From the NCBI GenBank assembly GCA_965221955.1, contig CBDCTA010000022.1, forward strand, positions 224,001-288,000: a stretch of DNA of 64,000 nucleotides. Reading direction: 5' to 3'. The translations under genes and the position numbers were made by a program. Shown here in pieces: positions 42,240-57,337 of this stretch. Source of the stretch: Gammaproteobacteria bacterium (lineage in GTDB: Bacteria > Pseudomonadota > Gammaproteobacteria > UBA4575). Positions within the stretch are counted from its first letter, which is position 1. Each line of letters begins with the position of its first letter. The notes beneath the pieces are model-generated. The model was given only the letters and a program-made list of their open reading frames with translations, did not search any database and was not told the DNA's origin.

Positions 42240-43042
42240 CCCGTCTTTCTAAACGGTTGTAGTAGCAATCGATCCAACCAAAGCTCACGTTGCTCACGAA
42301 AACTTTCGATGCCAATTGTCATACCTAAGTGCCCTTCTTTAGGTTGGGCGCGATAGGTTTTAAACATGTAGTCCCACTATGGTAGATTGAAACCAAAATT
42401 ACTATCAGTTTCTTTGCGTATAATTGAATGATGCACACGATGCATATCTGGCGTCACTATAAATAACCTCAACATCGAATCGATGGATTTTGGTATGCGT
42501 ATATTTGCATGATTAAATACCGAGGTTGCATTTAACAATATCTCAAACACTAACACAGCCATAGCTGGTGCACCGATGGCCACGATCACTAACATTTTTA
42601 TCACTAGTGATAAAACGATTTCCACTGGATGAAAACGAATAGCGGTTGTCACATCAAATTCTAAATCAGCATGATGCATGCGATGCAAATGCCATAAGAA
42701 ATCAACTTTATGAAAAATGACATGCTGTATGTAAATTGCAAGATCAAGCAAGAGCACTGCAATGATAATTGCCGCCACTTCAGGTAGCTCAATTACATTT
42801 AACAACCCTAAACCTGAATTTTGTGCATATACGGCCACAAATATTGCCGTGATCGGAATCAGCAGCCTTGTAACCAGCACATTGATGGTGCTAATCGATA
42901 GATTATTTAGCCAGCGTAAGCCTTTTGAATAATGTTGTTCACGGCGAGGAGCAATGATTTCCCAAATTGCGAAAACGACAAATACAGCTAAAAAAATACT
43001 CAGTCGAATAACAGCTTCATCGTGAAATAGAGAATCTAGCAT
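42236..43042 (-). pseudogene. Sterol desaturase/fatty acid hydroxylase family, interrupted by TAG at 42377-42379
   Basis: His boxes QHVIFH, LHRMHH, HRVHH; NFGFNLP*WDYMFKTY continues in frame to TAA at 42236. Confidence 0.85.
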
Positions 43043-43567
43043 TGCAACACTCTTTAAGGCTGAACACCGTATTCCAAACTAACTGTCAATGCTATTTAGA
43101 AAATTGGATAAGCTGATATAAATCAAACAATAACCGTTACGCTTATTGGGGCGCCTTCCATGGCTTGGGGACTTCCTTATGTATATAGTAAGACTCAGCT
43201 AACGCAAATTAGTTCTATCTATTCATATGTAACGTGTAAAAACTTCGACACATTTTCGATATGCAGTTGCTGATAATTTTAGGCTCTTACAACCCTAATT
43301 TGTTGCACATGGTTGTTTACAAAACTTTTCAATTACCGCTACTAGATACCGGAATAATTTCGTACTAAATATAAGGTTTTAAGCCCTTATTTAGACAACT
43401 CCCCCAGCTAATACCTCTTGGAACTAAGTCAAGCTAGTAAATGTCATAGAGTTACAGTGTTTTTCACCTAGATTTTCTCAATTGCAGTATAGTAACCACT
43501 GTAGTTTTCATAGATATTTTAGGTTAATTCATTTTACACAGGGGCTTAGTGCGATAGGCGTATCGAT

Positions 43568-44350
43568 ATGAATGTTGTCGCTAATTTATTGCTTGTTCTA
43601 TTGTTATGTACTTTTGTCGGCGCATGCAGCTCATCCTCTTCAAGCAGTATGCCTTCTATTCCTACCCCTAGTTCCCAATCTGAGTCTGAATCCAGTTCAT
43701 CATCTGCCGAAAACACTAGCGAACAAAAACAAACAAGTAAAAATAGTCAAGCTTCTGAAGAATCTTCGACTGAAAATGAACAACATGCAGCAACAGATGA
43801 TCAAAGCGAACCGTCCCAAGAAGGTGCACAAACAGATGAAGAAAAAGTTGCTATGTTAGATGCGCAGCTTGAAGAAAAACTTCGAAAGTATGATGAGCAA
43901 TTGCATAAAGAACTTGAAAAAGCTGAAGCACAAAAACAAGCACAAGCACGAGAACGTGAAGCAAAAGAAGCTGCTGAAGCAGGTATAGAGGAAGAAGACG
44001 AATTTGCAGAAGGGGATGAAGCAGAAAATAATGAAGAAGGTGCCTCTGAAGATGAACAGATGGCTAAAGCAGATTCACAACAAACTCCTCAAGGCAGTAA
44101 AACCCAACAAGCTGAAAATGAAAACAACTCAAGCAAAGGAGACAATGGCAAAGGCAGTAAAGGTTCCGCACCAAAAAATATCCCTAGTGGTAACGATGAC
44201 GATGTAGTTGCAAGACAATTACGCGAAGCTGCAGAAAACGAACAAGACCCTGAGCTACGTGAAAAACTTTGGGAGGAATATCGAAAATATAAAAAACAAC
44301 AGGCTAGTGCAAGCGCTCAACCGCCCAGTGCTGTGAATCAAACACAGTAA
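43568..44350 (+). CDS. Low-complexity acidic lipoprotein
   Basis: Lipobox VGAC; S/E/Q-rich; ordered C-terminal DDDVVARQLREAAENEQDPELREKLWEEYRKYK. Confidence 0.8.
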   Translation: MNVVANLLLVLLLCTFVGACSSSSSSSMPSIPTPSSQSESESSSSSAENTSEQKQTSKNSQASEESSTENEQHAATDDQSEPSQEGAQTDEEKVAMLDAQLEEKLRKYDEQLHKELEKAEAQKQAQAREREAKEAAEAGIEEEDEFAEGDEAENNEEGASEDEQMAKADSQQTPQGSKTQQAENENNSSKGDNGKGSKGSAPKNIPSGNDDDVVARQLREAAENEQDPELREKLWEEYRKYKKQQASASAQPPSAVNQTQ

Positions 44351-44375
44351 CTTTTAATAATAAAAACACAAGATC

Positions 44376-45560
44376 ATGAAAAAATATAAGTACATAACGG
44401 CCTTTTTTATTTTTCTATTTGCATTCATGTTTAGTGGCTGTTCAACTACTGCCGTTAAGGTCACAGATGCAGAAGAAATCGAAGCTGAAACTGCTCAACT
44501 ACAAGACAGCAGTCTGCTAGATGTAGGGATATTGCTGTTTGAAAAAGGCGAGATAACAGAAAAACAAAAAGAACAAGAAGGCGTGCATGACGATATTCGT
44601 CAGGCCGAAGCACGCTACATGGCCTATCACTTAAAAGAAACCATGCAACGCTCGAATGGCTGGGGCGCAATACGCGTTTTACCAGAAAAATCTTATATTG
44701 CAGATGTAGTAGTGGCCGGCAAAATCATGGCTTCAAATGGAGAGGAAATGATAGTCACTATTCATGTAAGTGATAGTACTGGTGAAGATTGGTTTGAAAA
44801 AACATACAAAACTCTTGCTGATGACGAAGCTTATCGCTATTCAAAACCAGGCCGAGATGTCTATCAATATGTTTATAACCGCATTGCCAACGACATTCGC
44901 AAACATCGCAAAAATTTAACTGACAAAGAATTGATCGCGATACGTAATAATTCTGAACTTCGCTATGCAGCAGGAATATCCCCTGACCCTTTTGCAGATT
45001 ACATCAGTTATGATCCGAGTGGGCACAGCAGCATCACGCGTTTACCTGCCAACGACGACCCAATGTTGACGCGCGTACGTAAAGTGCGTGATCGGGAGTT
45101 TTTGTTTATAGACACCATCAACGAGCACTACTCGAATTTTTATGGTGAGATGTGGGAACCGTATGAGAATTGGCGTTACTATTACATGATTGAGGCTGAA
45201 CAACGTCGTGAAATTGAACGGCGTGCCAAACAAACTAAGTTCGTTGCAGCCCTAATCATGATCGCAGGAGTTATGCGTGGTCCAGGATTATTTACTACAG
45301 GTGCACTCCTGTATAAGAACGGCATGGACATCAGCGAACAAGCAGAAATTCATAACGAAGCGATACGTGAACTTGGAGATTCTTTACAAGCAGAAGTAAA
45401 TCCCTTAGTCGTTGAAGTTCAAGGTCGTGCCATTGAGTTAACTGGTTCTATAGAAGAGCAGTATCAACAATGGCGCAAATTATTACGCGAAATCTATATT
45501 AATGAAACAGGTTTTGCTTTAGATGATCATGCTGAAACCAAAGACAGTGCAAAACTGTAA
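44376..45560 (+). CDS. Hypothetical lipoprotein
   Basis: Lipobox FSGC; 394 aa; second gene of the operon. Confidence 0.8.
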   Translation: MKKYKYITAFFIFLFAFMFSGCSTTAVKVTDAEEIEAETAQLQDSSLLDVGILLFEKGEITEKQKEQEGVHDDIRQAEARYMAYHLKETMQRSNGWGAIRVLPEKSYIADVVVAGKIMASNGEEMIVTIHVSDSTGEDWFEKTYKTLADDEAYRYSKPGRDVYQYVYNRIANDIRKHRKNLTDKELIAIRNNSELRYAAGISPDPFADYISYDPSGHSSITRLPANDDPMLTRVRKVRDREFLFIDTINEHYSNFYGEMWEPYENWRYYYMIEAEQRREIERRAKQTKFVAALIMIAGVMRGPGLFTTGALLYKNGMDISEQAEIHNEAIRELGDSLQAEVNPLVVEVQGRAIELTGSIEEQYQQWRKLLREIYINETGFALDDHAETKDSAKL

Positions 45561-45628
45561 TCGTTAGAAGTTAATCTCGCCTTACGTACAAATGTAGGTG
45601 GCAAGGACGCCAATAATTATAAATTGCA

Positions 45629-47152
45629 ATGCATGATAAAGATGCCACTCCAATCGAAGCAATTGATTTTGAGTCACTGCAAACACCCTCCGAGCAGAGC
45701 AATGAATCAAGTCGTAGTGTAAATACCAAACCTATTCTTTGGTTTATTTTTATTTTTCTACTGTTATGCGCAATCCTTGTTTTCGTGTTCTTACCAAAAT
45801 ATGTAGCTGAAAAACGCGCAACGAGCACCCCTAACCCATCTACACAGATTGAATCGCCTGCAGTAGAAGAACTTGCAATTGAAGCTGTTCAAGAACCCGT
45901 CAAAGAATTATCTATAGAAGAACTTAATGCTCTAAAACAAGAAGCTGAAGAACTTTTATTGAAAATTATTGATAGACAAAAACTGTTGGAAAACAAAGCA
46001 GTAAAAAAATGGGCCGCAGATGAATTCAAAATAGCGGAGACATCAGGTTCTGAGGGTGATGAGCATTTCCGTAAAAAAGAATATACGCAATCAATTGCAT
46101 CCTATGAGGATGCTATAACAATATTAAATGATTTAGAAAAACAAATTATTCCAACGCTAGCAAAGCATTTAGAAAAAGGTGAATTGGCATTGGATCAAGC
46201 AGAACAAACAAGCGCTATACACCATTTTGAACTAGCCAAAGCAATAGACGAAGGTAACACGCAGGCTATAAATGGTTTAAAACGCGCAGCGACGATTAAA
46301 GAACTATATGCTTTATTAGATAAAGGTGGAAAAGTTGAATCTGCGAACCGCCTTAGTGAAGCACAAAATATTTATAAGCAGGCTACCGAACTAGATCCTC
46401 TATCTAACGAAGCAAAATTGGCATTGCAAAGAGTGACTGGTCGATTAACACAAATAGAGTTCACTCAGTTAATTAATCAAGGCTACACTTCGCTTAAATT
46501 ACGTCAGTATAGTGACGCTAAAGCCTCATTTACTGCAGCACAAAAATTATTACCCAACTCCGAAAAGCCTAAACAAGGTTTAGCTAAAATACAACAAGCT
46601 CAACACAATGAGAAGCTCTCAGCCTTAAGTGCTGAAGCTCAGCATTTTGAGAAAATCCAAGACTGGGGTAATGCTGTAAAAAGCTATCAGCAAATTTTAA
46701 ACATCACACCAAACCATGCATCAGCACAACAGGGATTGCAACGTAGCCAACAGCGCAAAAAATTGCTTTCGCTTTTAAATGAGCATATTGATAATAAATT
46801 GCGTTTAAGCACAAAAGCCGTTTCAGATAATGCCCAACAACTGCTCAATGAAGCAAGCGCTCTCAATAACCCAGGAAGCAAAATCGAACAAGCTGCATTA
46901 ACACTTAAAGAATTATTATTTTTAGCTAAACAACCTATATCGATTACTTTGCAGTCGGATAATCAAACCGATATCGTAATTTACAAAGTTGGTAAAATTG
47001 GAAAATTCGAGCATCATGAAATTGAACTCAAGCCTGGAAAATATACCATAGTAGGCTCACGCTCGGGTTTTCGTGACGTAAGAAAAGTAATAACAGTGTT
47101 AACAGACATGACAAATAAAACTATCGATGTGCGCTGTGATGAGCCAATTTAA
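45629..47152 (+). CDS. Single-TM TPR-like protein
   Basis: TM ILWFIFIFLLLCAILVFVFLP; TPR-like repeats; beta-rich C-terminus LKPGKYTIVGSRSGFRDVR. Confidence 0.78.
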   Translation: MHDKDATPIEAIDFESLQTPSEQSNESSRSVNTKPILWFIFIFLLLCAILVFVFLPKYVAEKRATSTPNPSTQIESPAVEELAIEAVQEPVKELSIEELNALKQEAEELLLKIIDRQKLLENKAVKKWAADEFKIAETSGSEGDEHFRKKEYTQSIASYEDAITILNDLEKQIIPTLAKHLEKGELALDQAEQTSAIHHFELAKAIDEGNTQAINGLKRAATIKELYALLDKGGKVESANRLSEAQNIYKQATELDPLSNEAKLALQRVTGRLTQIEFTQLINQGYTSLKLRQYSDAKASFTAAQKLLPNSEKPKQGLAKIQQAQHNEKLSALSAEAQHFEKIQDWGNAVKSYQQILNITPNHASAQQGLQRSQQRKKLLSLLNEHIDNKLRLSTKAVSDNAQQLLNEASALNNPGSKIEQAALTLKELLFLAKQPISITLQSDNQTDIVIYKVGKIGKFEHHEIELKPGKYTIVGSRSGFRDVRKVITVLTDMTNKTIDVRCDEPI

Positions 47153-47187
47153 TAATTTATTCTCTTTATTTTCAGCAATACATAACG

Positions 47188-49602
47188 ATGATTGAGCAAG
47201 TTTGCATTACTGACCATAAGGGCCCTAGGTTTTATACCCATGCAGATTTTCCGTTATCAATTGGTTCCCACCCTAATGCTGATTTAGAGATTTCAGAACA
47301 TGAAGGCTCTGATCCTGCCTTTTTCATCATCATTGTAAATCGCGCATACATTGATACTGAAAATTCTAAAATCAAAGTTCTTCTCAACAATGAACGTGTC
47401 ACTGGTCAAAAAGAAATTCAACACAATGACATTTTAGAAATTGAAGGAATTGCGTTTCATTGTGAACACATAGGTAACACTCTTTCTATTTCTTTATATG
47501 ATGATGATGCTCATCTAGTGAGTCGAAACGAAGCGATTGCTTCAGATGGCGAGTTAATTGAACCCATCGTAATACCCGAACGCACGATAGAAAAAAAATC
47601 AAAAAAACGCTTTAAAGGATTATTATTTTTTGCAGGTCTATTAGTATTTGGCTTACTTGCTATTGTTTTAGGATATATTTTTACAGCTAAAACATTACTA
47701 ATCGAAATTGAACCCACTCCTGATCGCATCGCCTTACATGGAGATATTTGGCCAATTAAGATACGTGACCGTTATTTATTACAACCGGGTAATTATTCTT
47801 TACAGGCAAATAAAGCAGGCTACCGCCCATTACAACAAAAAATTAAAGTAAGTAAACACCAGTCACAGACATTAACTTTTACCCTAGAAAAAAAACCCGG
47901 CTATTTAAATATTAGTAGTCAGCCTGTTGAAAAGGCACGAATCCTGATTAATGGAGAACAAATTGGCAGTACTCCTATTGATACAATAGAACTTGAACCA
48001 GGAAGCTATAGCGTGGAAGCAAGCGCTGAACGTTATCAGCTCTACACGACTCAAGTGGTAATAGAAGGTAAAGAGGTCCAACAACAATTAAACATCAATT
48101 TATTACCTGACTGGCAAGATATCTTGATTGATTCGCAACCTAAGGGGGCTGAAATCTGGCTAAATGGTGAGAAAAAAGGAGTCACGCCTGCGTCATTCGA
48201 ACTGGATAGTGGTCAATATAGTCTTGAATTACGCCACCAAGATTATTTGCCTTATATAAAGGACTTTATTGTCGATGCTAATCAAGTTTTTAAACTTCCT
48301 GTCGCAGAATTATTTACCAGCCCAAGCCATTTGGTTATTACTAGCACACCTTCCAAAGCAAAAGTCGAAATCGCTGGAGAAGAACAAGGCATAACACCTT
48401 TTACTTTGCGTTTGAATCCAAACATAGAACACACCATTACGCTGAGTAAACCCGGGTTTCGAACAAACCAACAAATTGTAGTATTAAAACCTGGAGAACA
48501 ACAAAATATTTCTGCAAACCTAGAAGCAATCCTTGGAACCGTGATACTCAATGTTGAGCCTCATGATGCTGAAGTTTTTATCAACGGCAAATTTATGGGC
48601 AGTGGTAATGTAAAGCTATCTTTACCGAGTGCCAGTCAGCGGCTTGAAATCAGAAAATCTGGTTATCAAGTATATGAAAAAATGATTTCTCCAAACCCTA
48701 GTGCTCCACAAGTTTTAGATGTGAACTTATCGCGCATCACGAGTACTGCAAATTTAAGTAAGCCCAGTACAATACGCACCTCTGAAGGACAAGAGCTGAA
48801 ATTGATCTTCGGTGGTAAATTTTCAATGGGTGCAGCACGGCGCGAACAAGGACGACGTTCCAATGAAACATTACATTCCGTTGAACTGGTTAAGCCGTTC
48901 TATATAAGTGTATATGAGATTACTAACCAACAATTTGCTGCGTTTAAAAATATACACACTTCAGGTTCATATAAAAGTCATGATTTATCCGCCGGCAATT
49001 TACCGGTTAGCAATATAAGTTGGGAAGAGGCAGCGCTTTACTGCAACTGGTTAAGTGATAAAGATGGGCTGGAAAAAGTCTATCATGAAAAAAATGGCGT
49101 ACTTGTTGCCAAGAACCCCGTTCCTTCAGGCTATCGCTTACCCACTGAAAGCGAATGGGAATGGGTCGCACGTATTCAAAATAATAATCAAATCATCCGC
49201 TACGAATGGGGCAATGAGTTTCCTCCTAATAAGGTGACAGGAAATTATGCGGATCAGTCTGCCACCGAAATCTTAGATCCTTTACTTCCTGATTATAACG
49301 ATGGCTTTGTCGTTGCTTCACCCGTTGGTAGTTTTGCCGCGAATTATTTTGGTATTTTTGACATGGGCGGCAATGTAGCGGAATGGTGTCATGACTATCA
49401 CAGCATTTACCCTAGCTTAAGTGATGAAATTTTTACCGACCCTTTAGGTCCAAATAGTGATCAAGCTATTGATAATAAACATGTTATACGCGGTGCTTCA
49501 TGGATGCGTGGTGATTTAAGTAGCACACGTCTAAGTTATCGTGATCGAGATAACACTAATCGTATTGATGTTGGCTTTCGTATCGCCAAGTACATAGACT
49601 AA
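47188..49602 (+). CDS. FHA-like + TM + PEGA repeats + FGE-sulfatase (SUMF1-type) domain protein
   Basis: PEGA repeats (ISSQP..A.I.ING..IG.TP); FSMGA, YRLPTESEWEWVAR, FDMGGNVAEWCHD, VIRGASW, VGFRIA. Confidence 0.88.
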   Translation: MIEQVCITDHKGPRFYTHADFPLSIGSHPNADLEISEHEGSDPAFFIIIVNRAYIDTENSKIKVLLNNERVTGQKEIQHNDILEIEGIAFHCEHIGNTLSISLYDDDAHLVSRNEAIASDGELIEPIVIPERTIEKKSKKRFKGLLFFAGLLVFGLLAIVLGYIFTAKTLLIEIEPTPDRIALHGDIWPIKIRDRYLLQPGNYSLQANKAGYRPLQQKIKVSKHQSQTLTFTLEKKPGYLNISSQPVEKARILINGEQIGSTPIDTIELEPGSYSVEASAERYQLYTTQVVIEGKEVQQQLNINLLPDWQDILIDSQPKGAEIWLNGEKKGVTPASFELDSGQYSLELRHQDYLPYIKDFIVDANQVFKLPVAELFTSPSHLVITSTPSKAKVEIAGEEQGITPFTLRLNPNIEHTITLSKPGFRTNQQIVVLKPGEQQNISANLEAILGTVILNVEPHDAEVFINGKFMGSGNVKLSLPSASQRLEIRKSGYQVYEKMISPNPSAPQVLDVNLSRITSTANLSKPSTIRTSEGQELKLIFGGKFSMGAARREQGRRSNETLHSVELVKPFYISVYEITNQQFAAFKNIHTSGSYKSHDLSAGNLPVSNISWEEAALYCNWLSDKDGLEKVYHEKNGVLVAKNPVPSGYRLPTESEWEWVARIQNNNQIIRYEWGNEFPPNKVTGNYADQSATEILDPLLPDYNDGFVVASPVGSFAANYFGIFDMGGNVAEWCHDYHSIYPSLSDEIFTDPLGPNSDQAIDNKHVIRGASWMRGDLSSTRLSYRDRDNTNRIDVGFRIAKYID

Positions 49603-49621
49603 GTATTACAACTTAATATTT

Positions 49622-49867
49622 ATGAAAAATTTAGCAAAATTACTTTTTTACTTCACTATCTTGTACATGTTTTGTCTTGATGTAGGCATTGCTGAAGAAG
49701 ATAACAACAAGCAACCCTCTCAAGAACAAGCTACAAACTCTAGTAAACCGAAACAAACAGTGAATCAAAAAATAGGCAAGCGTGGACAAGTTAAAACACT
49801 TGAAGAATTTGTGCCTTCCGAAGAAGTGTCTGCAGATAAACCAGTCGCTTTTCCTAATGATATTTAA
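49622..49867 (+). CDS. Small secreted protein
   Basis: Signal peptide; C-terminal EEFVPSEEVSADKPVAFPNDI; 5-bp gap to the next gene. Confidence 0.7.
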   Translation: MKNLAKLLFYFTILYMFCLDVGIAEEDNNKQPSQEQATNSSKPKQTVNQKIGKRGQVKTLEEFVPSEEVSADKPVAFPNDI

Positions 49868-49872
49868 AAAAC

Positions 49873-50670
49873 ATGAATAAAACTTTTTCATTCGAATTTA
49901 TCTATCAAGTACTCAGCTTGCTGATCATTATCATTATTGTACATGCAGCGTATGTAGCAGTTATTCGCCCAAATGCTGAGGCAGAACTTGAGCAACAAGC
50001 TGAACAAATAAATATTGATAAAGACTATGTTCCAAAAAGATCGATCTATGTGTTGATACGTGACTATGAGCAAGAAGCCTGCTTCATTTTAATGTTTTGG
50101 GCCTTATTCATCATGGCATTTAAAGCTTCAAACTTATTGCGTGAACGTAGTTTGTTAGACAAAGATCTGTTACAAGCTAAGGAAAGTATAAAATTTTTAC
50201 CACAGGATACCCACGAACTTTCGAGACAAATTCAAAACTTATCCAATGAAGAGCAAGGTTATTTATTACCAAGAGTACTTAATGTTGCTTTACACCGTTT
50301 TAGCTCGACAAAAAATATTCAAGACGTGTCCTCTGCAGCGATTAGTGTTTGTGAGTCAGAATCTGAACGATTAGATTCAGAACTTTCTATCATTCGTTAT
50401 ATTACTTGGGCAATTCCTTCGATTGGATTTTTAGGCACAGTGCGTGGAATCGGGGATGCATTGGGTCAAGCACACAAGGCTGTAGAAGGTGATATTGCTG
50501 GGGTTACTGAGAGCTTGGGTGTCGCATTTAATTCTACATTGATTGCATTGTGTATCAGTATTGTATTGATGTTCATTGTGCATCAGTTACAACTATTACA
50601 AGAAAGATTTATTTTAGACACACAAAACTATTGTAATAATAATTTGATCCGTCACTTACAAGTCAGTTAG
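49873..50670 (+). CDS. MotA/TolQ/ExbB proton channel family
   Basis: IPSIGFLGTVRGI and GVAFNSTLIAL helices with channel threonines. Confidence 0.9.
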   Translation: MNKTFSFEFIYQVLSLLIIIIIVHAAYVAVIRPNAEAELEQQAEQINIDKDYVPKRSIYVLIRDYEQEACFILMFWALFIMAFKASNLLRERSLLDKDLLQAKESIKFLPQDTHELSRQIQNLSNEEQGYLLPRVLNVALHRFSSTKNIQDVSSAAISVCESESERLDSELSIIRYITWAIPSIGFLGTVRGIGDALGQAHKAVEGDIAGVTESLGVAFNSTLIALCISIVLMFIVHQLQLLQERFILDTQNYCNNNLIRHLQVS

Positions 50671-50681
50671 CGTGTAATGTC

Positions 50682-52049
50682 ATGTCTGAAGCCAGACCTA
50701 TTGTTATCATTGAGTGCTATGGCAGTGGCGTGCGGATCTGTGATGGCGAAAACATTCTTACCGACAGCACAAGCTATGCGTTAATTGAAGCCGATAATAC
50801 AATTATTGTAGGAGAGCTTGCTGAACACCAAGCACACCTTCGACCGCGAGAAGTAAGCACTCAGTTCTGGGCCAACCTCTCTGCTAGTAGCACTACCAAA
50901 CATATTGTCAGTAATGCTGAGCTCGCCCTATATCACTTACAACATGCCTGGCAATCTGCAAATTGTTCAAATCACGATGTTATTTTTATTACGCCTGCAA
51001 ATTTTGATAAGCATCAATTAGGTTTGTTGCTTGGTATTTGTGAAAAACTCTCTATCCATGTCGCAGGCATCGTATGTAATGCAGCTCTTGTTTTGCGAAA
51101 TCCACTTCGAAACAGTAAAGCTATTTATTTGGATTTACTCCTACAGCAACTGGTGATTACTGAATTGAATCATACCGATTCTGGTGTAGAGATTATTCAG
51201 CCGAGCCGGATTTTTGATTATGGTATACAAAATTTTATACAGAATTGTGCCAAAACCATTGCAAGCGAATTTGTAAATAAAACTCGCTTTGACCCTTTGC
51301 ATACTGCACAAGATGAGCAACAGTTTTTTGATCAACTACCTTCTTGGTTGATGCAATTGAAAACCAATGAAGTAATTGAGTGCCGTCTTTCTGTAGAGGG
51401 AAAGCATTTTGCGATAGAAATAAATCAACAGCAGCTACAAAAAGCTAATCAAGTACTATTTGAAGAAGTCGCAGCCTACCTCAATGTGCTTTTTCACGAT
51501 CATGACACATTGGCTATCTATTGCTCAGCTAGCTGCAATAAAATTTATGCTTTACATGAGTTTTTGTCGGCATTGCCTGGTTGCGCTGTGATACAGATGA
51601 ATGCAATGGATATTGCTCAACACGCTTTGCACAGCAAGAATGAAATTATTCGTGAAGGTCAAGTCCATTACATTACACGCTTAACTTGGTCAGACAAATC
51701 AATTACAGAATCCTTAAACTTTAATCCTGGAAAATTATCTAATATTTCGAGTATCCCTACACATGTGTTGATTGGTGGGCATGCTTATTCTCTACAACAA
51801 GAAATTTATATCGCAAGCAATGACTCTTCTACGGATCCAATCATCTTGTTAGAAAATCGATCTGATTGCTTGTGCAAAATTTCTAGTAATAACGTGAGTG
51901 TAGATATAGAAGTATTAAATGCTAAGTCGATTATGATCAATCATAATAAGGTTTCTGTTATGACTAGCGCAAAAATAGGGGACATACTAAGCATCCAAAC
52001 TAGTGAATCATCGTGCGAATTTATAAAAGTGGTGCAACATGAAGCGTAG
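50682..52049 (+). CDS. Cytoplasmic protein, possibly degenerate Hsp70/actin fold with FHA-like C-terminus
   Basis: S.ALI....IIVGELA, VIFITPANF....LGLL.GI..L.IHV; C-terminal IN......AKIGDILSI. Confidence 0.55.
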   Translation: MSEARPIVIIECYGSGVRICDGENILTDSTSYALIEADNTIIVGELAEHQAHLRPREVSTQFWANLSASSTTKHIVSNAELALYHLQHAWQSANCSNHDVIFITPANFDKHQLGLLLGICEKLSIHVAGIVCNAALVLRNPLRNSKAIYLDLLLQQLVITELNHTDSGVEIIQPSRIFDYGIQNFIQNCAKTIASEFVNKTRFDPLHTAQDEQQFFDQLPSWLMQLKTNEVIECRLSVEGKHFAIEINQQQLQKANQVLFEEVAAYLNVLFHDHDTLAIYCSASCNKIYALHEFLSALPGCAVIQMNAMDIAQHALHSKNEIIREGQVHYITRLTWSDKSITESLNFNPGKLSNISSIPTHVLIGGHAYSLQQEIYIASNDSSTDPIILLENRSDCLCKISSNNVSVDIEVLNAKSIMINHNKVSVMTSAKIGDILSIQTSESSCEFIKVVQHEA

Positions 52050-53127
52050 ATCTGTTAACGCTTTTAATCTTGCGTTTTTAGACGTCATGTTTTGTGGTTT
52101 TGGTGCAGTGATTTTATTCTTTATGATTATTAACGCTAACACCAGCGAAAGAAGAGATCGAATTAATTATGAAGTCACTGGTGAAGTTAGTAAGCTGGAT
52201 GAAGAGGTAATTGATGCAAATAAATTATTAGTAGAATTGAAAAACTCCCTGCAAGAAGTAGATACGGAGTTGATTGAAACACAAGGCAAATCGCATGAAA
52301 TTATTGAAAGCATCAAGAAAAACAAACTACAGCTTGCCAGGCTAGACAAAGAAACACTCGCAAAACTCAAAAATATTGCTGAATTAAAAGCTGATCTAAA
52401 ATCACTGGAAGAAGCCAATCAACGATTAGAAGGGGGAGCTCAGAAAGAATTAGAAGGCGATCGACTGAGACAATTTGCCGGTCAAGGTCAACGCCAGTAC
52501 TTAACTGGTCTGAAGATGGGAGGCGAAAGAATACTGATTCTTGTAGATACTTCTGCCAGCATGTTAGCGGATAGGATTATAAACGTGCTGCGCTTTCGCA
52601 ATTTACCTGCGAATGAACGGGTGCGTGCCGCTAAATGGCAACAAGTACTTTATACAGTAGATTGGATTACTACACGTATTCCGACTTCGAGCAGTTTCCA
52701 AATCTACAGATTTAATGAAGGGGTTACTCCTACCTATAAAGTAGAAGGCACGGCATGGCTAGATGGTGGAAATGCTAAGCACTTAAACACTGCTGTGCAG
52801 AATATGTTTCAAACCGCGCCAGAGAAAGGCACTAACCTTTATAAAGCTTTCGAAAGTATAGAACAGCTTTCGCCACCTCCTGATAATATCTATTTGCTCA
52901 CGGATGGTTTACCTACTAAAGGTGCTTCTGCAAGTTTTGGTAACACAGTCAGTGCCAAACAACGTAAAAAACTATATTCCAAAGCCTTACAAAAATTACC
53001 TGGTGGAATACCGGTAAATATTATTCTATTTCATATGGAAGGTGACCCGATGGCTGCAAGCGAATTTTGGAAACTCGCGCAAAATACTAATGGTGCTTTT
53101 TTTAGTCCTTCTAGAGATTGGCCTTAA
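52039..53127 (+). CDS. ExbD-like TM + coiled coil + VWA protein
   Basis: MKRR..FNLAFLDVMFCGFGAVILFF; MIDAS DTSASM, LLTDGLP. Confidence 0.85.
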   Translation: MKRRSVNAFNLAFLDVMFCGFGAVILFFMIINANTSERRDRINYEVTGEVSKLDEEVIDANKLLVELKNSLQEVDTELIETQGKSHEIIESIKKNKLQLARLDKETLAKLKNIAELKADLKSLEEANQRLEGGAQKELEGDRLRQFAGQGQRQYLTGLKMGGERILILVDTSASMLADRIINVLRFRNLPANERVRAAKWQQVLYTVDWITTRIPTSSSFQIYRFNEGVTPTYKVEGTAWLDGGNAKHLNTAVQNMFQTAPEKGTNLYKAFESIEQLSPPPDNIYLLTDGLPTKGASASFGNTVSAKQRKKLYSKALQKLPGGIPVNIILFHMEGDPMAASEFWKLAQNTNGAFFSPSRDWP

Positions 53128-53143
53128 TATAGCTTGTTAAGTA

Positions 53144-54151
53144 ATGAAACGACGTCGAAATATAGAAATTTTTAGTCTCTCATTTTTAGACTGTGTGTGT
53201 TGTGGGTTTGGCGCACTTATTTTATTACTCGTACTTTCTAAAACGGCTGAACCAGTCATCTTCGAAGAATATACACAAAGTTTAGAAAACATTGTTGCGA
53301 AACTACAAGAAGAGTTATTTGAGATAAGAGGTGAAACGCATATCTTAAATCGCGAATTGGTTAGTAAGAAGCAACAGGTTTCTGAAGAAATTGAAAAGAT
53401 CGCAGTACTGCAAAACGATTTATCTTCCATATTAGGACAATTTGCTGCTTCAAAAGATACTTCAAGTGTGCAAAATAAAATCGAGCAACAGCTCGCTTCC
53501 GCCAAACAAGATTTAAGTGAAGAAATGAGGCGTTTACAAGAACAACAACGATTACCCAGAACTGAATTGGACAATACCGTTGGTGGAATTCCTGTAGATA
53601 GTGAATATATTATTTTTATTATTGATACATCCGGCAGTATGTTTAACCATGGCTGGAGTTCTGTCATACAAAAACTTTCAGAAGTGCTAGATATCTACCC
53701 TAAAGTAAAAGGCATTCAAGTAATGAATGATATGGGTGAATATATGTTTACCCAATATACGGGTAAGTGGATTCCCGACACACCGGCTAGACGTAAGGCA
53801 ATAATCAAACGTATGCGCAAGTGGCAAGCATTCAGTAACAGTAGTCCAGTAGAGGGCATCACTGCTGCAATTAACACCTTCTACTCAAAAAATAAAAAAA
53901 TCAGTTTATATGTGTTTGGTGATGAATTTACTGGACCATCCATTCAGTCTGTCTTACGTGAAGTAAGCCGATTAAATCCAAAAAACAGTAAAGGTAAACG
54001 TCGTGTGCGCATCCATGCTGTAGGCTTTCCAATTCAGTTCAGTCGTCCTGATGATGAGCAAGGCACAGGGGTACGATTTGCAACCTTAATGCGTGCCTTA
54101 TGTGAACAAAACGGTGGCACTTTCGTTGGCCTCAACTCGCATACGCGATAA
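53144..54151 (+). CDS. Second ExbD-like TM + coiled coil + VWA protein
   Basis: MKRRR..FSLSFLDCVCCGFGALILLL; MIDAS IIDTSGSM, VFGDE, IHAVGF. Confidence 0.85.
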   Translation: MKRRRNIEIFSLSFLDCVCCGFGALILLLVLSKTAEPVIFEEYTQSLENIVAKLQEELFEIRGETHILNRELVSKKQQVSEEIEKIAVLQNDLSSILGQFAASKDTSSVQNKIEQQLASAKQDLSEEMRRLQEQQRLPRTELDNTVGGIPVDSEYIIFIIDTSGSMFNHGWSSVIQKLSEVLDIYPKVKGIQVMNDMGEYMFTQYTGKWIPDTPARRKAIIKRMRKWQAFSNSSPVEGITAAINTFYSKNKKISLYVFGDEFTGPSIQSVLREVSRLNPKNSKGKRRVRIHAVGFPIQFSRPDDEQGTGVRFATLMRALCEQNGGTFVGLNSHTR

Positions 54152-54366
54152 TTAATATCCTCTATTTAAGCCGCTGATTGGCATGATTAATACCCCTTGC
54201 CTAGTAGTCTGTAAAAAGTTATCGCATACTGTGCTTAACTAACTGAATAAGATAGACTTTTAAATAAATCTTTAACCCGTGCACATATATACATCTAGCG
54301 CACTTTGTCGCGAGAAAACTACCGCTTATGGCTTCGATATAGGCCTACATCTTTAAGGAGCTCAAA

Positions 54367-54936
54367 ATGTCATTCTCTAATTTACATACAACATCCAAAT
54401 ACTGTTTTTTGAAGGATTTATTTAAGTACGTCTTAATATCGATTACTTACTGCTTAGTGTTAAACGCATGTGGAGGTAATAAAGAAGAAACGCCAGTCGA
54501 AAAAAAGGAAGTTACAGAAACTGTCGTTCCTGAAAGTACTAAAGCCACTTCAAATGATATTGCTACTGAAGTTCAAATGAATCGAGAAAAATGGATGTCG
54601 CATGAAATTAGTGGTTACCAAATAGAGATGCAGAAAATCTGTTATTGCGTACCGGAAGTGGTTCGTATGATGGTTTTTGAGGTGGAAGGTGACGAGGTCA
54701 CTGCAGTTCGTTATGCAGATACAGGTGAAGATGTTGATCCACAACACTATGGTGACTTTAATACTATTGAAGGAATGTTTTCGTTTGTAGAAAAAGCGAT
54801 AGAAAAAGATCCGGCCGACCTATCCATCGCTTACGATGAAAAATATGGTTATATCAAAGAATTAAGTATCGACTTTAAAGAAAACATTGCTGACGACGAG
54901 ATTTCGATCATTGCCTCCAATATGAGGCCGAATTAA
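54367..54936 (+). CDS. Hypothetical lipoprotein
   Basis: Lipobox LNAC; ICYC, TIEGMF, YDEKYGY, ADDE. Confidence 0.75.
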   Translation: MSFSNLHTTSKYCFLKDLFKYVLISITYCLVLNACGGNKEETPVEKKEVTETVVPESTKATSNDIATEVQMNREKWMSHEISGYQIEMQKICYCVPEVVRMMVFEVEGDEVTAVRYADTGEDVDPQHYGDFNTIEGMFSFVEKAIEKDPADLSIAYDEKYGYIKELSIDFKENIADDEISIIASNMRPN

Positions 54937-54961
54937 CAATACAACTGAGTTGGACTTGTGT

Positions 54962-56989
54962 ATGAAAAGAATTTTTTTGTATTTCACTTTTATATCTTTA
55001 TTTACTTTCACATGTTCAGCTTTTTCAAATCAAACGCTGCCTGTTGTAATTAATGGAGAAAGCTACCAAGTAGAATACTGGACCAGCTACTTTGCTAAAG
55101 AGCTAGACATTAATTACATGGATAGTGATGTTACTGATAAAATAGACATTCAATTTTATCGCGGAAAAATTGTTGGGCACCCTGATTCTTTAGTAACACT
55201 TTCTAAATTTAAAGATTCCTTAAAAGGTATGGCCTTTTTCTACGGTGAATACTTTGAGATTGATGGCTCTATGTCCAGTATGGAGAATCAATCTAACACT
55301 GCCATGCAAAGTGCAAAAGTTGAGCTAGCGGACCTAGCAGATAAAGCTGCACGTGAAATGTGTCCCATACACACGAAAGAACATCATGATATGGAAATGG
55401 CTGCTAGAGCAACTATGTCTGTAAATACCGGTGGTGCACCACCCGTAGCTTTTGCTGTCGGTACAGTGAACCTTGTAGCAGATGTTGCCTTAGCTTTAGA
55501 CCCTGAATATGTACTCGTTCATGGTGGGGAGACCAACGCTGTAGTCAAAGCCCTACAAACTCTTGATACTGCAGACATGCTCTATCGGCAATCTAAACCT
55601 GCGATGGGTGCAGGTGGATTAGGTGTTGCATTGAATAATGTAAATATCAATGTCTACACTAATGCGTTACCGTTTAATGTTGCAGACATAATTGATCCTA
55701 ACCCCAATCTTGCGAACGGCAATCGACCAGAAATTGACGCATCGGCTTATCTAGACAGAATTCGACTAAATGTCACTGCGCTATTTGGCAACGCACGAAC
55801 GGTTGGTGCTATGTTTAGCGGCTATGACTTAGATGACACAATTGTTGGCGATGGCGTTGCTGGACTCGCTTATCTAACAAGTACCTGTAGTAACTTTGGT
55901 GTAAGTGTAGAAGAGGGTTGGGGTACCGATGCAGAGTCAACCATCATTGCTGCACATGAAATCGCACACAACTTTGGTTCTTGTCATGATGGTGACGGCA
56001 TACTCGATGCCGCAAATAATATTTGTCCAATTTCCTCTGTCGGTTGTGCTGCAAATGGTGGATACATTATGGGGCCTTTTGTGAATGCTGCAGCAACACA
56101 ATTTTCACAATGCTCCATTGCTAATATTGATTCACATATTGCTACACAGACTTGTTATAAAACGCCAATTGATATGCAAATTAGTCTGGCCTCTGCAGTA
56201 CCTGCTGTCGCAAATATGCTCAATCAAACGGGTTCTGCTGTACGCACCTTTAACGTCAGCAATATGTCTACAGAAATTTTGATAAATATTCCTATTTCTG
56301 GTTCTTTAGAAAATGTGAATGATCCAAACAACCCCAATACAGAATATACGACTGTTACCTTGCAAGGGAACAATTGCAACATTGCTGCGAATCGCCAATC
56401 TTATACTTGCACAATCGCGAATATCGGGGCCAATAATGCAGACGTACAAACCATAGTTGAGACGATAACGGCGACGGGTACCGGTCCTTTCAAAACTACG
56501 ACTGAATACAGAAACGTCGCTGCAGCACAGCAAGTTGATATTGAACCGCAAAATAGTATTGTCGAATTAACACAAACCATTAACGTGAATGCTCCAGTGG
56601 CCCCACCTGCGGCGCCAAGCAATGTGCAAGCTAGTCCACAAAATAATGGTGATATACGCGTGAGCTGGACAGACAACAGTAATAATGAAGCTGCATTTAG
56701 ACTTGAGCGAAGTGAAGACACGGTTGTGTATAACATCATTCAAAATAACCTTCCTGCAAACACCACAAGTTACACAGATAGTGGGCTTACTGAAGGGACT
56801 ACTTATACCTATCGAGTCTCTGCAATTAACGCAATGGGTGCAGTAGCTGCAGCAACAACACCAAGTGCGACTTCTTCAACCAGTGTTGCTACTGTTGGTG
56901 GAGATAGTGGTGGCGGAGGAGGCGGTGGTGGCTTCTATTTATTCACAGGTTTATTACTATTAGCGAGATTATTTAAACGCCCTTGCTAA
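54962..56989 (+). CDS. M12B/reprolysin-like zinc metalloprotease with FN3 domain and GlyGly-CTERM tail
   Basis: GVAGLAY, HEIAHNFGSCHD, Met-turn YIMGP, FSQCS; FN3 VSWTDNS..YTYRVSA; GGGGGGG + hydrophobic + basic tail. Confidence 0.9.
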   Translation: MKRIFLYFTFISLFTFTCSAFSNQTLPVVINGESYQVEYWTSYFAKELDINYMDSDVTDKIDIQFYRGKIVGHPDSLVTLSKFKDSLKGMAFFYGEYFEIDGSMSSMENQSNTAMQSAKVELADLADKAAREMCPIHTKEHHDMEMAARATMSVNTGGAPPVAFAVGTVNLVADVALALDPEYVLVHGGETNAVVKALQTLDTADMLYRQSKPAMGAGGLGVALNNVNINVYTNALPFNVADIIDPNPNLANGNRPEIDASAYLDRIRLNVTALFGNARTVGAMFSGYDLDDTIVGDGVAGLAYLTSTCSNFGVSVEEGWGTDAESTIIAAHEIAHNFGSCHDGDGILDAANNICPISSVGCAANGGYIMGPFVNAAATQFSQCSIANIDSHIATQTCYKTPIDMQISLASAVPAVANMLNQTGSAVRTFNVSNMSTEILINIPISGSLENVNDPNNPNTEYTTVTLQGNNCNIAANRQSYTCTIANIGANNADVQTIVETITATGTGPFKTTTEYRNVAAAQQVDIEPQNSIVELTQTINVNAPVAPPAAPSNVQASPQNNGDIRVSWTDNSNNEAAFRLERSEDTVVYNIIQNNLPANTTSYTDSGLTEGTTYTYRVSAINAMGAVAAATTPSATSSTSVATVGGDSGGGGGGGGFYLFTGLLLLARLFKRPC

Positions 56990-57109
56990 TTTATTATTAA
57001 CTCGAAGCATCTTTATTAACGGAGAAATATTTATATTTAGAAAATACATATAACTATTTACCTATTTATACCTCGTAGTATTTGTAGATTTTCTTTGAAA
57101 GGACTCAAT

Positions 57110-57337
57110 ATGAAATCGATCGCTATACTTATCTTTATATTCTTAACAAGTATTTGTTTTGCCTCTGAGAGTGAAGAACAAATAACACCCATCTTAGCTG
57201 AACCCATAGAAATCGTTTTAGTTTGCCCTAAAGGCAGTAAATACGAAGGCGAAGAACTGCCTAAATGGGTCACTACCGAAGAAGCTGCAGAATTCTTTTG
57301 TAACGACACCGTAGAAGAAACAGAAATTGCTGAATGA
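57110..57337 (+). CDS. Small secreted acidic protein
   Basis: AAGGA RBS, signal peptide, Cys pair in mature part. Confidence 0.65.
   Translation: MKSIAILIFIFLTSICFASESEEQITPILAEPIEIVLVCPKGSKYEGEELPKWVTTEEAAEFFCNDTVEETEIAE

Follow-up and report, generated by a model that had tools for sequence, protein, structure and literature searches.

A nine-gene operon joining a TolQ-like channel subunit to two membrane-anchored vWA proteins: a probable ion-driven, envelope-spanning force transducer

What does a TolQ-type channel subunit do in an operon that encodes no TolR, ExbD or MotB? The question is raised by nine consecutive genes, g1 to g9, located at nucleotides (nt) 43568-54151 of a 64,000-nt stretch of DNA from a gammaproteobacterial genome of the UBA4575 lineage (assembly GCA_965221955.1, contig CBDCTA010000022.1, positions 224,001 to 288,000), hereafter the window. 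A preliminary description of the locus had likened it to an uncharacterised ion-driven machine of the cell envelope. The analysis reported here points to a probable answer, namely that the operon encodes one trans-envelope force transducer driven by the proton-motive force, in which the vWA proteins g8 and g9 would stand in place of the TolR/ExbD-type partner and whose role would be a mechanical one in the envelope. The nine genes are listed below.

g1, 43568..44350, + strand: 260 aa; acidic low-complexity lipoprotein
g2, 44376..45560, + strand: 394 aa; lipoprotein, alpha/beta domain then helical hairpin
g3, 45629..47152, + strand: 507 aa; transmembrane-TPR protein
g4, 47188..49602, + strand: 804 aa; FHA-like/transmembrane/5xPEGA/FGE-fold (FGE, formylglycine-generating enzyme)
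g5, 49622..49867, + strand: 81 aa; small protein with conserved C-terminal motif
g6, 49873..50670, + strand: 265 aa; TolQ/ExbB/MotA-family channel subunit
g7, 50682..52049, + strand: 455 aa; cytoplasmic Hsp70-like nucleotide-binding domain (NBD) fold plus FHA
g8, 52039..53127, + strand: 362 aa; transmembrane helix-coiled coil-vWA
g9, 53144..54151, + strand: 335 aa; g8 paralogue, transmembrane helix-coiled coil-vWA

The list of open reading frames (ORFs) of the window places all nine on the + strand, with successive gaps from g1 to g9 of 25, 68, 35, 19, 5, 11, -11 and 16 nt, the negative value being the 11-nt overlap of the g7 stop with the g8 start. The preliminary description, which had proposed a co-oriented nine-gene operon with gaps under 70 bp, is confirmed on this point, and its gene list (lipoproteins, transmembrane-TPR protein, FHA-like/transmembrane/PEGA/FGE protein, ExbB/TolQ homologue and VWA pair) was correct in every item. 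Reading of the sequence together with a hydropathy scan located the lipoboxes of g1 and g2 and a single hydrophobic segment in each of g3, g4, g5, g8 and g9. The indicated topology comprises a pair of lipoproteins, a cytoplasmic protein and four proteins that cross the inner membrane once and have large parts in the periplasm. Pfam and NCBIfam searches returned no match to the TonB, TolA, OmpA/MotB, ExbD or MoxR families in any of g1-g9, in agreement with the earlier statement that TonB, TolA, MotB/OmpA domains and MoxR are missing.

The channel subunit, g6, matches MotA_ExbB (PF01618) with an E value of 4.6e-14, above the Pfam cut-off, and its closest solved sequence is an E. coli-type TolQ (PDB 8odt), aligned across TolQ 27-210. 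Thr189 (nt 50437-50439) and Thr222 (nt 50536-50538) of g6 align with TolQ positions 145 and 178, which are presumed, in line with a general statement in PMC12204202, to be the functional threonines. Both are invariant, as is His24, in a 44-sequence alignment spanning several phyla, and with a mean column identity of 73% g6 itself ranks among the operon's best-conserved proteins. His24 is borne by an extra N-terminal hydrophobic helix (residues 20-34, nt 49930-49974) that has no counterpart in the aligned TolQ and carries an invariant Pro33 at its end. Seven MotA_ExbB-family matches were found in the genome. Four of the five strongest adjoin one or two ExbD-family genes each, one of the four belonging to a tolQ-tolR-tolB cluster and g6 being the exception, and no ExbD-family gene lies on the operon's contig, all six matches of the genome being on other contigs.

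The place of the partner is likely taken by g8 and g9. The two are paralogues (about 20% identical; hhalign probability 98.1%), and both start with a basic stretch followed by a single transmembrane helix. This helix contains an Asp that is invariant in 19/19 family members (g8 Asp15, nt 52081-52083; g9 Asp16, nt 53189-53191), and no His (SHLS/His motif) was seen in the helix of either protein by sequence and hydropathy reading. The Asp shares an alignment column with the Asp of four of the genome's six ExbD/TolR-family N-termini, the other two having Asn. Beyond the helix lies a linker of about 100-125 residues (about 125 in g8) that is largely coiled coil, a call that derives solely from matches to coiled-coil proteins. 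It leads to a vWA domain whose metal-ion-dependent adhesion site (MIDAS), D-x-S-x-S, is invariant in the 19 aligned family members (g8 nt 52546-52560; g9 nt 53624-53638). In a scan of 19 members, 13 gave a VWA_2 match (best E 1e-8). The window's own g8 fell under the cut-off (23.6 vs 27 bits), no VWA match was obtained for its g9, and the g8/g9 profile searched against the PDB yielded coiled-coil matches only, with no significant vWA chain. The most conserved protein of the operon is g9, which is 59-69% identical in other phyla.

Because g6 has no ExbD neighbour and the transmembrane Asp of g8 and g9 falls in the TolR/ExbD Asp column, the pair likely constitutes the two-subunit axle of a 5:2 motor. 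The TolR/ExbD-like helix of g8 and g9 likely also explains the absence of TolR, ExbD and MotB, an explanation that the preliminary description had missed. A g9 homologue in another genome of the window's class (G311:C10:7147-8139) contains one in-frame TGA, explicable by a sequencing error, by decay to a pseudogene or by recoding.

An arrangement of this kind has been predicted in silico. The main text of 'Origin and Evolution of Bacterial Periplasmic Force Transducers' (Mol Biol Evol 2025; PMC12204202) describes TPH-vWA ('transpore-helix' vWA) motors, whose genes co-occur tightly with tolQ homologues, without tolR or exbD and with heterologous vWA pairs. According to the same text, a conserved Asp is coordinated by a Thr ring in AlphaFold 3 (AF3) 5:2 models, and the vWA helices have no SHLS/His motif; the analysis there took Idiomarina loihiensis as its seed. 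The corresponding features are all found in the window: a lone tolQ-like gene without tolR, exbD or motB beside it (g6), two heterologous membrane-tethered vWA genes nearby (g8 and g9, with g7 between g6 and g8), a helix Asp without an SHLS/His motif (g8 D15, g9 D16) and a conserved channel Thr ring (g6 T189, T222). By every sequence-level criterion g6, g8 and g9 are assigned as further members of the TPH-vWA class, and the motor core has already been published as a prediction.

The earlier term 'uncharacterised' holds in that no experimentally characterised system was matched, a match that would have spoken against the proposal of the preliminary description; the motor arrangement itself had already been predicted computationally in the main text of PMC12204202. 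No system-level match to the operon was returned by PADLOC or NCBIfam. The novelty lies in the complete parts list of a functionally uncharacterised system, i.e. six co-conserved genes beyond the motor core. In the main text of PMC12204202 the terms 'PEGA', 'Hsp70' and 'sulfatase' occur 0 times each and the single 'FHA' is FhaC; its supplements or gene-neighbourhood figure may show accessories. The accessible text of an eLife 2020 paper on conflict systems (PMC7159879) contains 0 mentions of MotA and ExbB.

The same proteins could be read as a static scaffold or tether, with g6 as a membrane platform or regulated ion leak and g8 and g9 as passive adhesins that span the periplasm and keep envelope layers or a surface structure in place. 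The vWA, PEGA and TPR domains are binding modules and the axle-like helix has no detectable ExbD sequence homology, as such a tether would have it. However, the helix Asp and the pore-lining Thr pair of g6 are invariant across phyla, which is hard to explain without ion coupling, and g6 ranks with the operon's most conserved proteins. A purely static role is therefore considered rather unlikely.

Ion-driven 5:2 motors (MotAB, ExbBD, TolQR, GldLM, ZorAB) are the only known means of delivering energy to the periplasm and outer membrane of diderm bacteria. By homology with them, five g6 subunits would form an ion-conducting ring in the inner membrane, and the N-terminal helices of g8 and g9 would sit inside its pore as a heterodimeric axle. 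Each axle Asp would be presented to the conserved Thr ring, as in TolR, ExbD and MotB, so that proton flow may turn or cycle the g6 ring against the g8/g9 axle. Rather than ending in a TolR-type peptidoglycan-binding domain, the axle would continue as a coiled coil of ~100 residues, with a reach covering much of the periplasm, and would carry at its tip a pair of unlike vWA heads, in which the MIDAS sites are intact and may bind acidic ligands in a metal-dependent manner.

Candidate partners for these heads are encoded upstream. The order of modules in g4 is an FHA-like module (nt 47188-47487), a transmembrane helix at about residues 150-174, five PEGA stretches (Pfam E 6e-54) and an FGE-fold domain (nt 48802-49590; FGE-sulfatase, Pfam E 2.6e-41). 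No lipobox was found in g4 by sequence and hydropathy, an internal transmembrane helix being present instead. Its best NCBIfam match is GldK/PorK (TIGR03525; E 3e-30, 105.8 bits vs a cut-off of 350), and PorK chains are the best solved matches of its head (E 6e-18), aligned to the domain end. Alignments with true FGEs stop ahead of the region of the catalytic Cys pair, and downstream of its last conserved Trp g4 contains no Cys. Because the PorK alignment runs to the domain end, the FGE alignments stop earlier and the catalytic Cys is missing, the g4 head is predicted to be non-catalytic and PorK-like. A catalytic FGE identity was ruled out, there being no C-terminal Cys pair.

In g3, a short cytoplasmic tail is followed by a transmembrane helix (about residues 36-57), a periplasmic coiled-coil/TPR region (TPR_2, E 8e-13) and a C-terminal beta domain, which is conserved. 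In 10/46 g3 homologues (Pkinase E down to 3e-48) the transmembrane helix has a Hanks Ser/Thr kinase domain ahead of it, which the g3 of the window lacks. The ten are L033:204-2615, L080:1012-3384 and eight others (L numbers denote distant loci), their identity being inferred from protein length together with the two scanned singly. The ORF of one further g3 homologue, L044:422-3433, opens with a domain of the iron-containing alcohol dehydrogenases (Fe-ADH, E 1.6e-31), probably an over-extended ORF that runs through the upstream gene and not a real fusion.

The motor genes and the PorK-like domain invite comparison with motility and secretion machines, and the operon could encode an analogue of the type IX secretion system (T9SS)/gliding core (PorL/M with PorK/N) or of the Myxococcus Agl-Glt machinery. 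Such a machine would be consistent with the 5:2-type set of motor genes, with the long shaft in the periplasm and with the FGE-fold domain that resembles PorK. The likeness to PorL-PorM-PorK-PorN (GldLMKN) extends to a MotA-family motor, a long dimeric periplasmic shaft and a non-catalytic FGE-fold protein. However, g4 is anchored in the inner membrane by a transmembrane helix and bears PEGA repeats, whereas PorK is a lipoprotein, and its score lies far under the PorK/GldK cut-off. No PorL/M/N homologues (NCBIfam) and no translocon are present, and the carriers of the operon are not Bacteroidota.

For Agl-Glt, the accessible text of PMC11761067 supports a likeness in the TolQ-type motor, the FHA-transmembrane-periplasmic protein (g4 like GltG), the TPR proteins and the vWA protein; there GltG (FHA, transmembrane helix, periplasmic part) is modelled binding the side of the AglR pentamer via its transmembrane helix and flanking FHA. 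The layout of g4 recalls that of GltG, and the available part of PMC9946355 describes a vWA adhesin, CglB, that acts in gliding. However, AglQ/S are TolR-type, CglB is an outer-membrane lipoprotein adhesin and not an axle, and the operon has no TonB-C-like domains, outer-membrane barrels or MglA/MreB/AglZ partners.

Membership in either system is excluded because the defining parts are missing from the operon. The parallels with Agl-Glt and GldJ/GldK drawn in the preliminary description therefore stand as analogies of parts and not as membership, no TolR-type subunits, TonB-C-like transducer or outer-membrane barrel being present. More generally, no outer-membrane beta-barrel, translocon, cargo signal, PorL/M/N, GldJ, TonB-C-like domain or secreted adhesin occurs in or beside the operon, its vWA proteins are anchored in the inner membrane and not surface-exposed, and the carriers include lineages that are not known for gliding. 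A motility or secretion machine is thus considered very unlikely.

The cytoplasmic side of the complex is represented by g7, for which no Pfam, NCBIfam or PADLOC match was obtained. Its predicted structure (pLDDT 95.5, pTM 0.90; predicted local-distance and template-modelling scores) matches Hsp70/DnaK nucleotide-binding domains (Foldseek E about 1e-17; TM-score ~0.7 to NBD-only chains) over about residues 1-345, and the earlier term 'actin-fold-like' was right, the fold being of Hsp70/DnaK type. Where Hsp70/DnaK has a substrate-binding domain, g7 has a C-terminal FHA domain (about residues 347-450, nt 51720-52031); the g7 family profile matches the FHA domains of EmbR, KIF13B, Rv0020c, Ki-67 and Rad53 over residues 347-445 (E 4e-6 to 9e-3). 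The family is large, with 1225 representative clusters at E <= 1e-3, 927 at <= 1e-10 and 101 at <= 1e-30, counts drawn from a library of 1.84 billion proteins.

In loci with enough flank, g7 was present in 59/64. It is cleanly missing between g6 and g8 in a gammaproteobacterial clade (L067, L078, L079, L081, L082, L090, L098). The g7-less loci form one group on a quick g8 tree (branch support 71), so that a single change suffices. The Leu-Pro of the g6 cytoplasmic loop, otherwise invariant, is lost in this group, Leu being found in 60/60 sequences with g7 vs 0/6 without and Pro in 60/60 vs 2/6. Asp151 of g6 is present in 98% with g7 vs 1/6 without, and His261 in 87% vs 0/6. The comparison, which comprises the six g7-less loci with a usable g6, hints that g7 may dock on the cytoplasmic face of g6, but it represents one evolutionary event only. 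Prediction of a g6 + g7 complex gave a score of 0.00 in both runs, which is no answer and counts neither for nor against docking.

Could these cytoplasmic modules mean that the operon is a sensor and not a motor? In a signalling system the vWA, PEGA and TPR domains would sense the state of the envelope, and the FHA modules, g7 and sometimes a Hanks kinase would relay it to the cytoplasm. Consistent with this, two cytoplasmic FHA-type modules are encoded (g7 and g4), the FHA-like g4 N-terminus is kept at every locus of the ten inferred kinase-bearing g3 homologues, and at least four Hanks kinases are encoded elsewhere in the window's genome. However, Pfam and NCBIfam found no kinase, transcription factor or other output domain in the window's operon. 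The kinase/FHA layer is also dispensable, as 20/51 g4 homologues are without the FHA-like part and 5/64 loci are without g7, which argues that it regulates the machine and is not its purpose. A sensor is consequently regarded as quite unlikely. Because the FHA-like part occurs in 31/51 g4 homologues and the loci with a kinase-bearing g3 all keep it, the cytoplasmic FHA modules look like an optional phospho-regulatory layer. In the force-transducer model, g7 and the FHA-like g4 N-terminus might regulate or localise the motor, with regulation by phosphorylation conceivable in lineages whose g3 bears a Hanks kinase.

The remaining proteins are two lipoproteins and a small protein with a conserved end. 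In g1, a lipobox Cys near residue 20 is followed by a long Ser/Glu-rich disordered region, and an alignment of 35 sequences shows a C-terminal helical motif of ~35 residues (nt 44189-44296) to be conserved between phyla; Pfam and NCBIfam gave no match. In g2, Cys22 is at least 90% conserved, and the predicted structure (pLDDT 81.4) consists of an N-terminal alpha/beta domain (about residues 25-185) and a long helical hairpin (229-339) with a hydrophobic tip. Foldseek matched the N-domain to the LPHT ring/FlgT, PelC, CsgG, TolB-N, LptE, PqiC and TraT at E 7e-5 to 2e-2; relatives in Atlas were all clusters annotated 'hypothetical protein'. Placement in the PelC/LptE/PqiC/CsgG/FlgT/TolB-N fold class of ring-forming outer-membrane lipoproteins is a lead from model comparison and not a finding. 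In g5, an N-terminal signal/anchor helix and a disordered middle precede a C-terminal 19-residue motif (nt 49808-49864). The motif, F-x-P-S-E ... F-P-x-D-I-stop, is almost invariant across phyla at the exact C-terminus (40 sequences).

Speculatively, the acidic C-terminal motifs of g5 and g1 and the g2 lipoprotein are candidate ligands or partners of the vWA heads, as is an inner-membrane-anchored g4 scaffold (PEGA stalk and PorK-like head) with the g3 TPR protein. These candidates can be assembled into a bolder proposal, possible though unlikely as a whole, that the nine proteins represent an unrecognised class of trans-envelope rotary machine, with a vWA-tipped coiled-coil heterodimer as the axle turning in a TolQ-like ring. 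The two MIDAS sites would engage the acidic C-terminal boxes of g5 and of the outer-membrane lipoprotein g1, and the axle would drive or position a g2 ring and the PorK-like/PEGA g4 scaffold under the outer membrane. A nucleotide-dead g7 on the cytoplasmic loops of g6 would act as a clutch, controlled by phosphorylation in some lineages. If true, flagella, Ton/Tol and T9SS/gliding would be joined by a fourth major use of such 5:2 motors, one that extends over at least six phyla.

The distribution of the nine genes was examined in related and distant genomes. Around the window's genome, g7 was found in 22/41 genomes searched, including 21/24 genomes of the window's family vs 0/16 in 16 other families of the class; many of the family genomes with g7 are only 1.7-2.9 Mb. 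All nine genes were colinear in 9/10 in-family loci, the tenth being cut by a contig end after g5, and within the family the operon occupies a fixed place between housekeeping genes. A pattern search with the g9 alignment (one genome per species) yielded at least 503 relatives among 588 candidate stretches. The best 80 of these were scanned as distant loci with profiles built from the in-family genes, and the counts describe the closest relatives of g9 only. A pattern search with g7 alone gave 181 pattern matches and no relative among them, the 79-sequence g7 alignment having no stretch conserved enough for such a search.

Record titles of the distant loci name Gammaproteobacteria, Desulfobacterales and other Thermodesulfobacteriota, Acidobacteriota, Planctomycetota, Thermodesulfovibrionia (Nitrospirota) and Gemmatimonadetes (Gemmatimonadota). 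Counts of all nine genes required at least 9.4 kb of sequence upstream of g9, available in 45 loci, whereas counts of g6-g8 required at least 3.6 kb, available in 64. The order g1-g9 was colinear on one strand in 44/45 distant loci, which together carry at least six phylum labels, and g6 and g8 were present in 64/64. Within the 45 loci, the profile scan detected g3, g4, g6, g8 and g9 in 45 each, g2 in 44, g7 in 42, g1 in 33 and g5 in 27. Some of the misses of g1 lie beyond the fetched flank, and the g5 motif was recognised in the g4-g6 spacer of 12 of the 18 loci missed by the profile. Conserved synteny, which the preliminary description had put forward as a check on its proposal, is therefore strongly upheld and beyond chance. 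No recurrent flanking gene family occurred in more than 9/54 loci with at least 3 kb downstream of g9, a search that covered the downstream side, the fetched flank ending near g1; the conserved unit therefore ends at g9.

On the quick g8 tree, the Nitrospirota L046, Planctomycetota L056 and Acidobacteriota L054 loci nest inside Desulfobacterales groups, and the Acidobacteriota loci L070 and L076 group with Gammaproteobacteria. This nesting suggests whole-operon horizontal transfer or mis-binned contigs.

What work would such a machine perform? The fixed locus and the presence in the small genomes of the family fit a core envelope role. Of the known systems, Tol-Pal offers a precedent for the output proposed here, with a TolQ-family channel and an operon that mixes an inner-membrane motor, a TPR/coiled-coil protein and outer-membrane lipoproteins, and there is a weak likeness between the g2 N-domain and the fold class of the TolB N-domain. 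The operon is nevertheless distinct from Tol-Pal, as Pfam and NCBIfam detected no TolR periplasmic domain, TolA, TolB beta-propeller or OmpA-like Pal in g1-g9. A Tol-Pal-like mechanical role is favoured because the operon has no outer-membrane channel, cargo or adhesin, and because of its housekeeping-gene setting, its retention in the family's small genomes and the varied lifestyles of its carriers. The output would be mechanical work on the outer membrane or peptidoglycan layer, i.e. tethering, positioning or remodelling of envelope components as by Tol-Pal; such work is most likely, with locomotion or export less likely. A complex powered by the proton-motive force for surface motility, secretion, adhesion or envelope remodelling was the reading of the preliminary description. 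Its general part, a proton-motive-force-powered envelope complex, is the best-supported reading of the operon; the functions it listed are indistinguishable from one another, and motility and secretion are without support.

The channel superfamily is also shared with MotAB and ZorAB, which likewise have an Asp-bearing partner helix, and a Zorya-type anti-phage defence role, with a MotA/B-like motor sensing envelope perturbation, was considered. PADLOC gave a weak match of g6 to ZorA (E 8e-5, MotA domain only). However, the operon lacks an OmpA-like peptidoglycan-binding domain, a rotor (FliG), a ZorA tail and ZorC/D effectors, and Pfam and PADLOC found no match to ZorB/C/D and no nuclease or other effector. 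Its fixed chromosomal locus, strong protein conservation and near-universal presence in the family are furthermore unlike defence islands, and a Zorya-type role is scarcely credible. The Bat/aerotolerance type of vWA-MoxR system was rejected, as no AAA/MoxR or DUF58 match was found in g1-g9 or the neighbouring genes.

Several observations weigh against the force-transducer reading or parts of it. For the axle, Pfam ExbD did not match the g8/g9 family, so that the TolR/ExbD likeness of the helix is positional only, and a phmmer query consisting of g8 residues 1-40 retrieved no PDB sequence at E <= 10. For the accessory proteins, the g2 N-domain was aligned by VIA-align to the same fold set at Z 8.6-6.6, which is at the aligner's stated background, and the g4 N-terminus is FHA-like only weakly (profile vs PDB FHA domains of Ki-67, GarA, EmbR and EssC, E 0.0016-0.006) and is variably present, with 31/51 homologues having the FHA-like part and 20/51 missing it. 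Read by eye, the consensus of the g7 family shows no evident glycine-rich phosphate loops of the Hsp70 kind, and g7 may thus not bind ATP. For the function, a canonical tolQ-tolR-tolB cluster is present elsewhere in the genome (contig C21), and a Tol-like role of the operon would be additional to it and not a replacement. An even phylum sample contained g9 relatives in 20/401 genomes (8/212 when counted by genus), and a single family of another class accounts for 16 of the 20; such a patchy distribution is unusual for a core function. The main text of PMC12204202 reports the TPH-vWA class mainly from Proteobacteria and Verrucomicrobia, assigns no function and reports no phenotype. Literature searches by domain combination, transpore helix and title phrase retrieved no other description and no experiment on members.

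Should the force-transducer reading hold, integrin-like vWA proteins would replace the TolR/ExbD/MotB-type partner, with six further genes kept in order across distant phyla. Every new 5:2 partner set so far has revealed a new cell-envelope process. The carriers, which include genome-reduced marine Gammaproteobacteria, sulfate reducers and Acidobacteriota, point to a conserved, unstudied envelope function. Experimental handles are provided by the Asp pair of g8 and g9, the Thr pair of g6, the two MIDAS sites, the PorK-like scaffold, the two C-terminal motifs as candidate ligands and the candidate cytoplasmic docking loop on g6.

In the window, g1 is preceded by a 525-nt spacer and a divergent fatty-acid-hydroxylase gene, and base composition is even throughout the region. 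Consensus scans of 42900-57300 gave 24 promoter-like sites, below the shuffle mean of 41.2, and 10 terminator-like sites vs 11.3 in shuffles, and identified no regulatory element in the 525-nt region upstream of g1. An Rfam scan found no match within or adjoining the operon. Part or all of 47188-54151 is contained in 7 sequencing runs from 2 studies, with no RNA run listed.

A DUF6174 lipoprotein gene lies 215 nt downstream of g9, and the segment 54367-56989 (+) encodes this lipoprotein followed by a 679-residue reprolysin-like (M12B) zinc metalloprotease with an fn3 domain. The C-terminus of the protease, a glycine run, a hydrophobic helix and a basic tail, resembles a sorting signal. Both genes were rejected as members of the system, as they follow g9 in 6/9 in-family loci and in no distant locus cluster. 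Further from the operon and outside it, the segment 59938-60025 (-) matches the c-di-GMP-I riboswitch aptamer over its full length (Rfam RF01051, 81.6 bits).

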